DNA of 6,282 bases, taken from a virus (lineage: Duplodnaviria > Heunggongvirae > Uroviricota > Caudoviricetes). The translations under genes were made by a program, and so were the position numbers. Shown piece after piece: positions 1,580 through 6,282 of this stretch; position 1 is the stretch's first letter; the number at the start of each line of letters is the position of its first letter. The stretch lies in IMG/VR virus record IMGVR_UViG_2547132488_000016; one strand, 5' to 3'. The notes under the pieces were generated by a model, which had not been told where the DNA came from, did not search any database, and worked only from the letters and a program-made list of their open reading frames with translations.

Positions 1580-1683
1580 GAGTGCCTAGTGGCACAACAT
1601 GACTCAACGAATCATCCTGGACTTCATATGCCCCAGGCGGCTACTTCGTGGGCGTCCTGCCTGTTCGTTACTGCAACATCTTT

Positions 1684-1730
1684 AAGTTGTAATCTAGTTG
1701 TTGTTTTGGTTGTTGTCAACAACTTTATGT
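1684..1730 (-). promoter_or_regulatory. PL-like leftward early promoter with overlapping operator repeats (OL-like)
   Basis: Minus strand reads TTGACA (plus 1714..1719) - 17 nt - TAGATT (plus 1691..1696). A perfect 7-1-7 palindrome GTTGTTG-T-CAACAAC (1709..1723) overlaps the -35, and the same AAGTTGT/ACAACTT half-site motif found between cI and cro recurs at 1684..1690 and 1697..1704. Confidence 0.5.
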
Positions 1731-1913
1731 GGTTTTAACGGATGTGAAATGAGGGCTAGGGTTATCAAAAAAGGAGGTTGTATGGACGATGCGCTTTTAA
1801 TTGCACAATGGACACTTTCCTTCCGTGATTGGAAACTCTCAAATCACGGGAGGAAGATTGAAAAGGCGGGTAATAATGGTAACTAAATTTCTGAAGGAAT
1901 GTTTTTTGATGCA

Positions 1914-2600
1914 TTACCAAGTGCGCGATGACCAGAATACTCTACCTATAACGTGAATTCTGGAACGCCTATCTTCGAAGGTGAGTATTTCATCTGGATA
2001 CTCATCTTTATTGAAACTTCTTAGAATCAGACCACCGTCAGGTAAATTGATCAATATCTTAACTCTAAGTAATACGCCATCACGTATAGCATAAAGATCC
2101 CCATCACGAATAGGAACTGTTTGGGAAACATCAACAGCAACAAAATCTCCATTGTTAAGTACAGGTAGTAAACTATTACCCCAAATTTTTACGATCTTTG
2201 CATTGGAGACACATACACCAGCTTTCCTTAAATCAATCCTTCTTAGCGGGAACCAGTCTACAGTTGATTCAACTATTTCAGCCAAACATCCATTACCCGC
2301 TGATAACTCGACATCTAGGACAGGAATGTTTGCAAAAATGTCAGGATCTAATGTTGTACTTTCAGCCTCCTTTACAACAAGGTTTGGGAAAGACGCGTTA
2401 TCCTCAATGCCCAATTGCAACCACTTTTGAGAAACCCCTAACACTTTAGCAATCTCTTTAATTTTCCGAGGCTGTTGAGTTTCTCCATTCTCGATTTTTG
2501 CTACGGATTGTTGTGAAAGCCCAATCTTTTCAGCTAGTTGCGCCTGACTCATTCCTGCTTTTTCTCTTTCGCTTTTTAGTCTTTCTGCCAATGTTTTCAC
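1914..2600 (-). CDS. CI-like prophage repressor (HTH_XRE N-terminal domain + LexA/S24 autopeptidase C-terminal domain), 228 aa
   Basis: GTG start at 2600 with GAGGGGGA 6 nt upstream on the minus strand. N-terminal HTH (MSQAQLAEKIGLSQQSVAKIENGE), candidate Ala-Gly autocleavage site (ELSAGNG), Ser in GNSLLP and Lys in LRVKIL about 40 residues apart (S24 Ser/Lys dyad). Divergent from a Cro-like gene across an operator region. Confidence 0.9.
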   Translation of the reverse strand: MKTLAERLKSEREKAGMSQAQLAEKIGLSQQSVAKIENGETQQPRKIKEIAKVLGVSQKWLQLGIEDNASFPNLVVKEAESTTLDPDIFANIPVLDVELSAGNGCLAEIVESTVDWFPLRRIDLRKAGVCVSNAKIVKIWGNSLLPVLNNGDFVAVDVSQTVPIRDGDLYAIRDGVLLRVKILINLPDGGLILRSFNKDEYPDEILTFEDRRSRIHVIGRVFWSSRTW

Positions 2601-3566: not shown

Positions 3567-3921
3567 ACAGTTTAACAACACACTACCGTCGCTCGCAACT
3601 GATTGCGCTTCCGGTACCGGGTGGAAAAGCGAAGGTGGAGTATTGCTATGCAGTGAATGTACCAGGTGACAGGGAAATTGTAACCCACAGCTTTGCAGAG
3701 TGGGCTGTGGGTGATTTCAACCGGCAGAAGGAGACAGTCCTTTGCGACAAGTTAACCGCTGGTTCAAAGATCACTACGGAGTGCCCGTCAGAGTCATTCG
3801 TTGGGAGCCGGAAACACAACGGGTTATCTACCTCCGTGAAGGCTATGAACATGAATGCTTCAGCCCGCTCGAACAGTTTCGTCGTAAATTCAGGGAAATA
3901 GAGGTCGGTCATGAGCACTAA
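3563..3921 (+). pseudogene. Small early gene with a broken reading frame: N-terminal part in one frame (3563..about 3750), C-terminal part in the -1 frame (about 3715..3921)
   Basis: ATG 3563 (ATGA overlap with upstream stop) opens a frame with good codon usage for about 60 codons ([53 protein letters not shown]). Beyond about 3750 that frame becomes Ser/Asn-rich with rare codons, while the -1 frame, open from 3715 to TAA 3919..3921, reads protein-like with common codons ([58 protein letters not shown]) and ends 11 nt inside the next gene. Alternative: a separate 59-codon gene from TTG 3742, which has AAGGAG 7 nt upstream. Confidence 0.5.
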
Positions 3922-4867
3922 ATTAACCGGCTATGTATGGGATGGTTGCGCTGCGTCAGGCATGAAGTTATCCAGCGTGGCAATTATGGCCCGCCTGGCT
4001 GATTTCAGTAATGACGAAGGTGTATGCTGGCCATCAATTGAAACCATTGCCCGCCAGATTGGCGCGGGGATGAGTACCGTCAGAACGGCTATCGCACGGC
4101 TGGAAGCAGAAGGCTGGTTAACGCGTAAGGCGCGTCGCCAGGGTAACCGCAATGCGTCGAATGTTTATCAGCTTAACGTTGCGAAGCTTCAGGCAGCGGC
4201 ATTTTCTCAACTGTCAGATTCTGACCCGTCAAAATCTGACGCATCAAAATCTGACGCATCAAAATCTGACCCGTCAAAATTTGATGCGTCGAAATCTGGC
4301 AAAAAAGCGGGTTTTCACCCGTCAGAATCTGGCGGGGATCCGTCAGTAAAATCAAAACATGATCCGTCAGATAAAAAAACTTCTCGTCCGGACGCTTCGC
4401 AACCGGACACGCAGACGGATGAACAGGATTTTTTAACTCGCCATCCTGATGCGGTTGTATTCAGCCCTAAAAAGCGCCAGTGGGGGACGCAGGATGATTT
4501 GACCTGCGCACAGTGGCTCTGGAAAAAAATCATCGCCTTGTACGAGCAGGCCGCCGAATGTGACGGCGAGGGGGTTCGTCCCAAAGAACCTAACTGGACA
4601 GCCTGGGCAAACGAAATTCGCCTGATGTGTGTGCAGGATGGTCGTACTCACAAACAAATCTGCGAGATGTACAGCCGCGTCAGCCGCGATCCGTTCTGGT
4701 GCCGTAACGTGCTCAGCCCGTCGAAGTTGCGGGAAAAATGGGATGAGCTTTCCCTGCGATTATCGCCGTCCGTCAGCACGTACACCGAAAAACGCGAAGA
4801 CCCGTATTTCAAAGCCAGTTACGACAACGTGGACTACAGCCAGATCCCGGCAGGATTCAGGGGGTGA
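3911..4867 (+). CDS. Phage replication initiator (lambda O-like role): N-terminal winged-HTH DNA-binding domain, repeat-rich acidic linker, C-terminal domain; 318 aa
   Basis: ATG 3911 with GAGG 6 nt upstream; TGA stop 4865..4867. N-terminal HTH-like segment (SSVAIMARLADFSNDEGVCWPSIETIARQIGAGMSTVRTAIARLEAEGWLTRK). The gene contains tandem 15-bp iterons that encode an SKSDASKSDASKSDPSKFDASKS repeat, as in lambda O, where ori lies inside the gene. Position after cro/cII-like genes fits. Confidence 0.8.
   Translation: MSTKLTGYVWDGCAASGMKLSSVAIMARLADFSNDEGVCWPSIETIARQIGAGMSTVRTAIARLEAEGWLTRKARRQGNRNASNVYQLNVAKLQAAAFSQLSDSDPSKSDASKSDASKSDPSKFDASKSGKKAGFHPSESGGDPSVKSKHDPSDKKTSRPDASQPDTQTDEQDFLTRHPDAVVFSPKKRQWGTQDDLTCAQWLWKKIIALYEQAAECDGEGVRPKEPNWTAWANEIRLMCVQDGRTHKQICEMYSRVSRDPFWCRNVLSPSKLREKWDELSLRLSPSVSTYTEKREDPYFKASYDNVDYSQIPAGFRG
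4213..4380. repeat. Probable replication origin: five to six tandem 15-bp iterons (TCAAAATCTGACGCA and variants, 4214..4303), degenerate copies to about 4336, then an A-rich tract (4371..4379)
   Basis: Read directly: 4229..4243 and 4244..4258 are identical; 4259..4273, 4274..4288 and 4289..4303 are 1- to 4-mismatch variants; 4214..4228 is a degenerate copy containing the palindrome GTCAGA-T-TCTGAC. Two GATC sites (4337..4340, 4361..4364) and an A-rich tract follow. The layout mirrors lambda ori (iterons plus an AT-rich region inside O). Confidence 0.7.
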
Positions 4868-4869
4868 TC

Positions 4870-5358
4870 ATGAGTCTTTTGAATGAAGTTCAGAAATTCA
4901 TTGAAGCCCATCCGGGGTGTACTTCCGGAGACATTGCGGATGCTTTTGCAGGTTACTCACGGCAGCGCGTTCTGCAGTCAGCAAGCAAGTTACGTCAGAG
5001 TGGGCGTGTGGCTCACCGTTGTGAAGGAGATACACGCAGACATTTCCCACGCCTGACTGAGAGAGCGCAGGAGCCGGAACCACAACCAGTTCGTGAAACC
5101 AGACCTGTGCGCAATTTCTATGTCGGCACTAACGATCCCCGGGTGATTTTGTGCCTGACCCGCCAGGCGGAAGAACTGGAGTCCAGGGGCTTATACCGTC
5201 GTGCTGCAACGGTGTGGATGGCGGCATTCCGTGAAAGCCACTCCCAGCCAGAACGAAACAATTTTCTGGCGCGTCGTGAGCAGTGTTTACGGAAAAGCAG
5301 CAAGCGCGCTGTATCGGGTGATGAGTGGTATCTGTCAGGGAATTACGTGGGGGCTTAA
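4870..5358 (+). CDS. Putative transcriptional regulator: N-terminal winged-helix-like domain plus C-terminal PerC/Pch-like motif; about 162 aa
   Basis: ATG 4870 with GGGGG 5 nt upstream (GTG 4864, overlapping the upstream TGA, is the alternative); TAA stop 5356..5358. The C-terminal segment AEELESRGLYRRAATVWMAAF matches the PerC-family hallmark (LE..GLWRRAA..W) by eye. N-terminus (LLNEVQKFIEAHPGCTSGDIADAFAGYSRQRVLQSASKLRQSGRV) looks like a small wHTH. Confidence 0.65.
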   Translation: MSLLNEVQKFIEAHPGCTSGDIADAFAGYSRQRVLQSASKLRQSGRVAHRCEGDTRRHFPRLTERAQEPEPQPVRETRPVRNFYVGTNDPRVILCLTRQAEELESRGLYRRAATVWMAAFRESHSQPERNNFLARREQCLRKSSKRAVSGDEWYLSGNYVGA

Positions 5359-6011
5359 TGAGTAATAAATATTGCCAGGCGCTGGTGGAACTGCGGAACA
5401 AACCAGCCCATGAACTGAAGGAAGTAGGTGATCAGTGGCGCACGCCGGACAACATTTTCTGGGGAATTAACACCCTGTTTGGCCCGTTTGTTCTGGATCT
5501 GTTCACTGACGGTGATAACGCCAAATGTGCTGCGTATTACACGGCGGAAGACAACGCGCTGGCGCATGACTGGTCAGAACGTCTTGCGGAGCTTAAAGGG
5601 GCTGCCTTTGGTAATCCCCCATACAGTCGCGCCAGTCAGCATGAGGGGCAATACATCACTGGCATGCGTTACATCATGAAACATGCCAGTGCCATGCGTG
5701 ATAAGGGTGGGCGCTATGTTTTCCTGATCAAAGCTGCCACCAGCGAAGTGTGGTGGCCGGAAGATGCGGACCATATTGCTTTTATTCGCGGACGTATTGG
5801 TTTTGAACTGCCTGCCTGGTTTATCCCGAAGGATGAGAAGCAGGTGCCGACAGGCGCTTTCTTCGCTGGTGCTATTGCTGTTTTCGATAAGACCTGGAAG
5901 GGACCGGCAATCAGCTACATCGGGCGCGATGAACTTGAGGCATGTGGTGAGGCGTTTCTGGCGCAGGTTCGCCAGCAGGCGGAAAAACTGGTCAGGGAGA
6001 TGGCGGCATGA
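5358..6011 (+). CDS. Phage-type DNA N6-adenine methyltransferase (Dam family, NPPY motif), 217 aa
   Basis: ATG 5358 overlaps the upstream TAA (TAATG), with GGGGG upstream; the ORF track's earlier start at 5325 is in the same frame and less likely. Contains the catalytic motif GNPPYS (AAFGNPPYSRA) and an upstream W-x-T-P motif (DQWRTPDNIF), typical of small phage orphan Dam-family methyltransferases. Stop TGA 6009..6011 overlaps the next ATG. Confidence 0.8.
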   Translation: MSNKYCQALVELRNKPAHELKEVGDQWRTPDNIFWGINTLFGPFVLDLFTDGDNAKCAAYYTAEDNALAHDWSERLAELKGAAFGNPPYSRASQHEGQYITGMRYIMKHASAMRDKGGRYVFLIKAATSEVWWPEDADHIAFIRGRIGFELPAWFIPKDEKQVPTGAFFAGAIAVFDKTWKGPAISYIGRDELEACGEAFLAQVRQQAEKLVREMAA

Positions 6012-6282
6012 CGACGTTAACTCAATGCCAGCAGCAGGTGCTGGATATGCTGATTTCTTATCAGAAAGAACGTGGCTTCCCGCCAACCAATCAGGAGGTG
6101 GCAACCATGCTGGGATACCGTTCAGTGAATGCAGCGGTGGAGCATCTTCGCGCACTGGAGAAAAAAGGCGTCATCACGATAAAGCGTGGCGTGGCCCGGG
6201 GGATAACGCTTCATACCGCGGTGAAGGACGACGACAGCGAGGCGGTCGGGATTATCCGCGCACTGCTTGCCGGGGAGGAAAA
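6008..6282 (+). CDS. LexA-like repressor (LexA-type N-terminal DNA-binding domain), 5' part only; continues past window end
   Basis: ATG 6008 in an ATGA overlap with the methyltransferase stop; GGGAGA 7 nt upstream. MTTLTQCQQQVLDMLISYQKERGFPPTNQEVATMLGYRSVNAAVEHLRALEKKGVITIKRGVARGITL aligns by eye with the LexA N-terminal domain (LT.RQ..V...I......G.PPT..E.A..LG.RS.NAA.EHL.AL..KGVI......ARGI.L). The final residues RALLAGEE resemble the LexA Ala-Gly cleavage region. Frame is open to the window edge. Confidence 0.7.
   Translation, partial: MTTLTQCQQQVLDMLISYQKERGFPPTNQEVATMLGYRSVNAAVEHLRALEKKGVITIKRGVARGITLHTAVKDDDSEAVGIIRALLAGEE

Follow-up and report, generated by a model that had tools for sequence, protein, structure and literature searches.

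What a short open reading frame (ORF) and a strong stem-loop are doing between the repressor gene and the leftward promoter of a temperate phage was the question raised by a 6,282-nucleotide (nt) stretch of the IMG/VR virus record IMGVR_UViG_2547132488_000016, which, at its full length, is called the window here. The window is the immunity region of an Escherichia coli lambdoid prophage with an SfV-like left arm, and the feature is located in the 174-nt spacer that separates PL from the stop codon of a cI-like repressor gene. A first-pass annotation, made from the letters alone, had offered a small peptide gene, an antisense regulatory RNA or a chance ORF in a regulatory spacer. Our analyses led elsewhere: the ORF, with its hairpin, is very probably what a decayed BRCT-domain accessory gene has left behind, its peptide now functionless, and the most likely account of it is ordinary decay of a gene and not the presence of a new regulatory RNA or peptide gene. 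Chance was not quite the right word for the ORF, as the feature is non-random because it is homologous to a larger gene.

The feature itself was exactly where it had been placed. On the plus strand, the Shine-Dalgarno (SD) sequence AAGGAGG at 1771-1777 stands 4 nt ahead of an ATG at 1782, which opens 34 codons (MDDALLIAQWTLSFRDWKLSNHGRKIEKAGNNGN) closed by a TAA at 1884-1886 (the ORF, with its stop, spanning 1782..1886). Within it lies the stem-loop, at 1816..1856 and with no strand assigned, in which TTTCCTTCCGTGATT (1816-1830) pairs with AATCACGGGAGGAAG (1842-1856) to give 15 bp around an 11-nt loop, the 3' arm including GGGAGGAAG. All of these coordinates were reproduced, as was the setting, with a PL-like promoter on one side and a cI-like repressor on the other. 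On the plus strand the stem has 13 Watson-Crick and two G.U pairs, each G.U becoming a C.A mismatch when the minus strand is folded. Base composition would indeed not give such a hairpin: its folding energy was -23.0 kcal/mol on the plus strand (z = -4.07) and -18.4 kcal/mol on the minus strand (z = -3.44), and on neither strand was any of 200 dinucleotide shuffles as stable. An upstream in-frame ATG at 1749 extends the ORF to 45 residues (MRARVIKKGGC plus the 34 residues), a form reported by several annotation pipelines; this ATG is kept in the family alignment introduced below, without a ribosome site of its own (window 1749-1781). Neither Pfam nor PADLOC gave a match to the 34-residue peptide or to the small neighboring ORFs, and Rfam, queried at E <= 1 with the window at full length, returned nothing in 1700-1960 on either strand. 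When positions 1560-1960 were searched as DNA against 50,697 phage records, only 1606-1670 was matched, and the spacer itself was not.

The source of the ORF emerged when window 1680-1960 was compared, as DNA, with 5,426 complete E. coli genomes. The whole segment, referred to below as the short form, was present in 25 records, 24 of them at >=95% identity and the last, the CX04 plasmid (L003), only ~90% identical and with insertions and deletions. In 48 other complete E. coli records only the 3' half of the spacer was matched, at 60-80% identity, and there the matched stretch lay within a gene annotated as "BRCT domain-containing protein" that adjoined an XRE/cI gene. In two such loci, L001 (strain HB-Coli0) and L004 (strain TST3), a plus-strand gene of 297 or 293 codons fills the slot between PL and the convergent cI, overlapping the 3' end of cI by 18 nt, and every fetched locus having a homologue of this cI (58-93% amino acid identity) carried the BRCT gene in the identical convergent, overlapping position.

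Both ends of this gene are still present in the window. Positions 1760-1807 align with its ribosome site and first codons, and the window's AAAAAAGGAGGTTGT ATG GAC GAT GCG CTT is the parent's ribosome site and start, the product beginning MDDAL where the parent begins MEDAL. The family ribosome site is AAAAAAGGAGGyTGT ATG, and the SD at 1771..1777 is its plus-strand counterpart. The idea that SD and ATG form a genuine translation start on the plus strand was therefore sound, in that they are the conserved initiation region of the BRCT gene, and they look strong because that region of the former gene is intact. The 5' relic, the start and first codons of the ancestral gene at 1782..1807 of the plus strand, contains CTTTTAATT(A/G)CACA, corresponding to CTTTTAATTACACA of L001 codons 7-11 with 7 nt (CTTTACG) lost between GCTTT repeats. 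The 3' relic, at 1809..1931 of the same strand, derives from codons ~250-296 (GTLSSRDWKFSSHGRKIEKA...ISEEMLFDALPSSR), is 79% identical as DNA, and reads TLSFRDWKLSNHGRKIEKA...ISEGMFFDALPSAR where the parent reads TLSSRDWKFSSHGRKIEKA...ISEEMLFDALPSSR*. Its first part, 1809-1883, equates to parent codons ~250-275; the relic has lost 12 nt at one point and 9 nt at another and has gained an in-frame TAA at 1884, past which the ancestral frame goes on (ISEGMFFDALPSAR) to the old stop, TGA 1929-1931, overlapping the 3' end of cI by 18 nt just as in the relatives. In all, the parent gene measures 891 nt vs 150 nt for the equivalent span of the window, so that ~740 nt are absent, among them the codons for the entire helical N-domain and for the greater part of the BRCT fold.

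The likeness is best seen against WP_000389078.1 (E. coli HB-Coli0, 293-300 amino acids), which shares with the window its slot, ribosome site, first codons, hairpin codons and 18-nt overlap, the last ~40 codons having 79% DNA identity. Compared with the family of that protein, the window lacks ~740 of 891 nt, has substitutions at invariant residues and stops prematurely at the TAA. Synteny, the SD and the ME/MD-D start agree in supporting descent of the ORF and hairpin from the BRCT-domain gene family, as a relic and not a functional member of it. A profile scan of genome contigs with the family alignment yielded no more than 13 loci, none of which was a nearer full-length parent for the relic.

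Just past the ancestral stop, within the last codons of cI, the plus strand of the window also has an inverted repeat, CCAGAAT...ATTCTGG (1932-1963). In L037, another of the full-length relatives, the corresponding repeat (3892-3923) forms a terminator-like hairpin of 12 pairs trailed by a T-rich stretch, a possible terminator for the plus-strand gene placed within cI coding sequence; in the window no T-run follows the repeat.

The parent is a genuine, conserved gene. Homologues numbered 354 at E < 1e-5, in Enterobacterales and beyond, and the parent consists of a helical N-domain of ~180 residues followed by a C-terminal BRCT domain of ~85 residues, residues 206-290 matching the Pfam BRCT profile (PF00533). 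An AlphaFold model of the parent (pLDDT 69.8) likewise has a helical N-terminal region and a C-terminal domain, and the modeled C-domain superposes on the solved BRCT domains of RFC p140 (2k7f; root-mean-square deviation 2.3 over 87 columns), XRCC1 and LigA. Members of the family are found at L001 1753-2643, L004 1751-2632 and, in the Vibrio phage K139, L063 2153-3058. The family-invariant motif is L252 S253 S254 R255 D256 W257 ... S261 H262 G263 ... K265-A269, and it is precisely here that the window has diverged: within 15 residues, the invariant S254 and S261 and the near-invariant F259 are replaced (S254F, S261N and F259L). The retained C-terminal fragment spans less than one third of the BRCT fold. 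A 34-residue product would be expected to be unable to form that fold, and to be functionless.

How the short form may have arisen can be traced in outline. The ancestral module would have comprised OL/PL on the minus strand, a plus-strand gene of ~297 codons for the helical N-domain and BRCT domain, and the convergent cI. In the short-form allele that is the commoner, with A at 1803 and G at 1809, the sequence is CTTTTAATTACACA-A-GGGACACTTTCC; to the left it is identical to parent codons 7-11, and to the right it matches codons 250-253. The interior loss of ~720 nt would then have taken a 7-nt slippage deletion between the GCTTT repeats and a ~713-nt deletion with little or no microhomology, joining the gene's start, with its ribosome site, to the part that begins at codon ~250, at a junction near 1807-1809, and later deletions of 12 nt and 9 nt downstream, the latter creating the TAA, would have left the 34-codon frame. 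One in-frame 720-nt deletion was set aside as an explanation because the 14-nt exact match of the commoner allele to codons 7-11 fits the 7-nt and ~713-nt events better. The breakpoints are uncertain by a few nucleotides, as the closest full-length relative is ~20% diverged.

Since its formation the short form has continued to change in ways expected of neither a conserved peptide nor its start site. DNA comparison of eight copies, the window and seven others, found only two variable ORF sites among the seven, both non-synonymous, and one copy in which the SD was mutated to AAGTAGG. In the protein databases the 34-residue form occurs on 247 contigs and the 45-residue form on 397, labeled "hypothetical" or "uncharacterised". 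The variants recorded there add nine or more single-residue changes, a 30-residue truncation and three distinct alterations of the SD; one of them retains the ancestral S254. NCBI PGAP never called the short ORF, and a scan of viral contigs for the short form gave only two further copies. The peptide was found only in near-identical E. coli copies of one narrow lineage. Purifying selection on the peptide across relatives was not borne out, given the non-synonymous polymorphisms, the residue variants, the truncation and the SD mutations. The proposal of a small peptide gene consequently gave way to that of a frame in which the two ends of a BRCT gene have been fused, with invariant residues replaced and amino-acid and SD changes accumulating.

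The hairpin, too, has its source in the parent gene, where it is present in identical codons of the full-length members. The motif codons TCC CGT GAY TGG ... AGT CAC GGR AGG AAG (LSSRDWKFSSHGRK) are self-complementary, and the stem-loop exists because the codons of this conserved BRCT motif, represented in the window by LSFRDWKLSNHGRK, are so. It had been suggested that the two G.U pairs betrayed selection on a plus-strand RNA, an idea that the relatives do not sustain: over 15 distinct sequences, 81.5% of cells were paired on the plus strand vs 81.9% on the minus strand, with A.C and G.U positions occurring elsewhere in the stem on both. The amino-acid-changing S254F and S261N, later substitutions in this scheme, would simply have happened to tighten the plus-strand pairing. 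A search for compensatory changes found only one pair altered on both sides, the window's own, and all covariation measures fell within shuffle controls on both strands. A synonymous-site scan gave no dip at the hairpin, diversity being 0.542 in its 14 codons vs a gene mean of 0.537.

The outcome of recoding tests turned on the null model. Unrestricted synonymous recoding gave an appearance of strong selection (fractions mostly <= 0.03) that we reject, as that null allowed rare TCN/AGY and CGN/AGR switches. When the motif was recoded at third positions only, it already folded at -10 to -13 kcal/mol vs a gene-wide window mean of ~-5, and the natural sequences fell at quantiles of 0.005-0.37 (plus strand) and 0.001-0.11 (minus strand). 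Third-position recoding removes most of the effect, and most of the structure therefore follows from conservation of the peptide and from the codon families that encode it.

There are nonetheless observations that weigh against decay as the whole story, some touching the ORF and some the hairpin. The ORF is intact in all eight short-form DNA copies, and the SD in seven of the eight, and the combined deletions keep the frame through to the old stop codon. When ~505 windows of 42 nt in the BRCT and cI genes were ranked by stability, the hairpin came first in 11 of 12 diverged homologues on the minus strand and in eight of the 12 on the plus strand. In a simulation of decay from the consensus, minus-strand stability was -20.7 vs an expected -17.6 kcal/mol (fraction 0.006), a figure that is optimistic because the simulation presumes a star phylogeny and takes the consensus as ancestor; plus-strand stability (fraction 0.14) was not above expectation. 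The only hint that structure is being maintained, a weak one, is accordingly on the minus strand, that of the cI transcript, opposite to what had been proposed, and it leaves a residual doubt as to whether the retained 3' fragment has some cis-acting role.

That role, in which the hairpin-forming segment (the LSSRDWKFSSHGRK codons) would be a cis-acting element of the immunity module that has outlived its host gene, acting on the minus-strand cI transcript, is in our judgment unlikely but worth stating in full. Most plausibly it would be a structure defining or stabilizing the 3' end of the cI mRNA, and less plausibly a DNA palindrome giving self-immunity of the aba type considered below. On the former version the element would mark or protect the mRNA 3' end after Rho termination, or block transcription from PRM running into PL, and for such reasons it would have been spared. 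The case for it begins with how cI transcription ends. Neither the window nor the full-length relatives L001 and L037 have an intrinsic terminator on the minus strand between cI and PL, where SfV is annotated with one. The hairpin was considered for this part and ruled out, being a stem without a T-run on either strand: the minus-strand stem is followed by AGUGUCCAUUG, which is not a U-tract, and the terminator scan was empty on that strand. In having a stem-loop between the end of the repressor operon and PL the locus resembles those with a terminator downstream of cI, such as the annotated one of SfV and tIMM in lambda, but the SfV terminator lies 13-37 nt past cI, whereas the window stem lies 58-98 nt past the cI stop and lacks the U-tract. 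What lies between is the untranslated trailer of the cI transcript, from the cI stop to the hairpin (1857..1913, minus strand), which is C-rich and G-poor, with C/G = 3.6 vs 0.7 inside cI. Because of this composition, and because no intrinsic terminator is present, the cI transcript likely ends by Rho-dependent termination within the trailer, as far as composition can tell; this applies on the relic reading too, where the hairpin may serve to limit trimming from the 3' end.

To these points in favor of a retained cis element are added the first rank of the hairpin on the minus strand, its excess stability over neutral decay and its low minus-strand recoding quantiles, all given above, and the weak or absent hairpins of distant homologues whose genes do not converge on a cI of this family. 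Each has its counterweight. No compensatory change supports the element, its paired cells do not exceed shuffles, and synonymous conservation at the hairpin is no higher than elsewhere in the gene. The simulation has the star tree and consensus ancestor already noted; the presence of the hairpin follows phylogeny as well as synteny, the two being inseparable in these homologues; and the window's own minus-strand stem is the weaker one because of its two C.A mismatches. If true, this reading would explain both why the deletion spared the hairpin and why its local stability is the highest across diverged relatives.

It is much less probable that the 34- or 45-residue peptide, translated from the retained ribosome site, has acquired a function of its own as a micro-protein. 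The SD is strong and well spaced, the ORF has stayed intact in the eight DNA copies, and its sequence, which gene callers predict as a gene, is carried by hundreds of E. coli contigs. Set against this are its confinement to one narrow lineage of near-identical sequences, the non-synonymous nature of both DNA polymorphisms in the ORF, the many single-residue variants, the truncation and the three SD-disrupting alleles. The peptide matches no family, and its ancestry explains its sequence entirely.

We give similarly little credence to a cis-antisense RNA, in which a plus-strand transcript from upstream of 1771 would run into the 3' end of cI and modulate the cI mRNA. In the relatives, transcription of the plus-strand gene has to begin from a promoter in the ~60 nt between the -35 of PL and the SD, and the family alignment has there TTGATT, a 17-nt spacer ending in TGC, and AAGGAT, i.e., conserved -35-like and -10-like blocks separated by a spacer of variable sequence and fixed length, beside an operator-like block. 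The putative promoter of the ancestral gene would correspond to 1734..1762 on the plus strand of the window, where the counterparts are TTTAAC and TAGGGT without the TG, weaker-looking than the family consensus, and a strict promoter scan detected it neither in the window nor in L001. Convergent overlap with cI is moreover the ancestral arrangement. Over plus-strand positions 1720-1930 the scan found no consensus promoter and no terminator that would delimit a discrete RNA; the stem has no T-run after it, no Rfam family was matched, and the relatives have neither structural covariation nor a plus-strand bias. The lambda OOP RNA, which the first-pass annotation's idea brings to mind as a short transcript convergent with the 3' end of a regulatory gene, has a strong promoter of its own and an intrinsic terminator; here, by contrast, the stem is not part of a terminator, the promoter is a putative one and the sequence is derived from a coding region. 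Any plus-strand transcript would presumably be residual.

The slot occupied by the parent gene has precedents. In lambda, rexAB are lysogen-expressed accessory genes in the position adjacent to cI, and like rexAB and the bstA gene of phage BTP1, another example of the accessory or defense genes that lysogens express from this slot (PMC8585504), the parent gene sits directly downstream of the repressor gene. It differs from both in being convergent with cI, where they are co-directional, and in encoding a BRCT domain rather than Rex or KilA-N proteins, and in the window a stub is all that is left of it. A distant homologue of the parent, orf2 of Vibrio phage K139 (NP_536630.1; 33% identical over 95% of its length), likewise adjoins cI in a lysogeny module, in the order cI-orf2-glo-int, although it is co-directional with cI, belongs to a P2-like phage and has a weak hairpin. 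Because rexAB and bstA hold the repressor-adjacent slot, and a relative adjoins cI in K139, the BRCT family is, by analogy, a reasonable candidate for a lysogen-expressed defense or exclusion function. The one defense-related signal is that the full-length protein weakly matches PDC-S48 of PADLOC (E = 2.4e-7), itself a candidate system only, and literature searches on BRCT with prophage, defense or superinfection, and on K139 orf2, found no functional data.

By the same analogy, a DNA segment of the BRCT gene, either the hairpin palindrome or the SD/start region, might neutralize the BRCT protein and have been kept by short-form phages to escape that protein in related lysogens, much as the 63-bp aba of BTP1, made up of 29 bp upstream and the first 34 bp of bstA, lies in a gene downstream of cI (PMC8585504), an explanation that we think scarcely credible even with the shared slot, the retention of exactly the start region and the palindrome, the DNA binding of the BRCT domains of RFC p140 and LigA and the PDC-S48 match in its favor, given that a defense role for the protein is itself putative, that no likeness in sequence to BstA or aba was seen, though no test aimed at one was made, and that both gene ends would be expected to persist anyway because they abut OL/PL and overlap cI.

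The surroundings of the relic are those of a conventional immunity region. The cI-like repressor (1914-2600, minus strand), convergent with the relic, has 228 amino acids with HTH_3 and Peptidase_S24 domains, and its homologue is labeled an XRE family regulator in RefSeq relatives. A promoter scan placed the PL-like promoter, TTGACA-17-TAGATT, at 1719 to 1691 on the minus strand (-35 at 1714-1719, -10 at 1691-1696), and recovered the identical promoter in L001 and L037. Two operator-bearing blocks, 1675-1701 and 1714-1736, enclose PL and are invariant in a 13-sequence family alignment; these OL/PL blocks and the SD remain invariant over 13 diverged loci whose cI proteins are only 58-93% identical. 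To the right of cI are a PR-like promoter from the same scan (TTGTGA-18-TATAAT, 2665-2694) and a cro-like gene (2738-2986). OL (1675-1736) and OR (2625-2725) have the motifs CAACATCT(TT/AA)AAGTTGT and TCAACAACTTTA in common, in identical orientation, and the operator consensus appears to be ACAAC-N5/6-GTTGT.

The ~65-nt block at 1606-1670, in the PL leader on the minus strand, is 85-100% identical across many phages with differing immunity regions (SfII, SfV, SfIV, ST64B, Kati, phiNP, YeP1-3 and Klebsiella phages), in most of which it is unannotated. It coincides with a mosaic junction, as short-form relatives lose collinearity at ~1621-1627; its fold was no better than that of shuffles (z = -0.32), and a recombination linker and a nut/put-like leader element are both conceivable identities for it.

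Farther from the spacer, 817-1032 of the minus strand, flanked by a yfdP-like gene and the ORFs that come next in the PL operon, gave the one notable Rfam hit, a full-length match to the small RNA family STnc100 (RF02076) whose 39.5 bits (E = 4e-6) fall short of the gathering score, 47. A replication-protein gene on the plus strand (3911-4867) contains at 4200-4300 tandem repeats of ~15 nt (TCAAAATCTGACGCA-like) that encode DPSKSD/DASKSD repeats; they are iteron-like and probably mark an origin inside the gene, and they also yield spurious Rfam mir-5880 matches. A plus-strand ORF that runs off the window end (6009-6282), beginning MTTLTQCQQQVLDMLISYQKERGFPPTNQEVATMLGY, resembles the N-terminal DNA-binding domain of LexA, of which it is a candidate, and is preceded by a putative DNA adenine methylase-like gene (5358-6011).

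For the annotation of E. coli prophages, the 34- or 45-residue "hypothetical protein" found on hundreds of contigs is best read as a pseudogene fragment, and not as a micro-protein or a small RNA. As this family of immunity modules has no recognizable intrinsic terminator after cI, how PRM transcription stays out of the PL operon becomes a testable question, for which the conserved hairpin is the obvious candidate. More broadly, the relic points back to an uncharacterized and widespread family, a helical domain joined to a BRCT domain, that fills the repressor-adjacent slot of enterobacterial lambdoid prophages.

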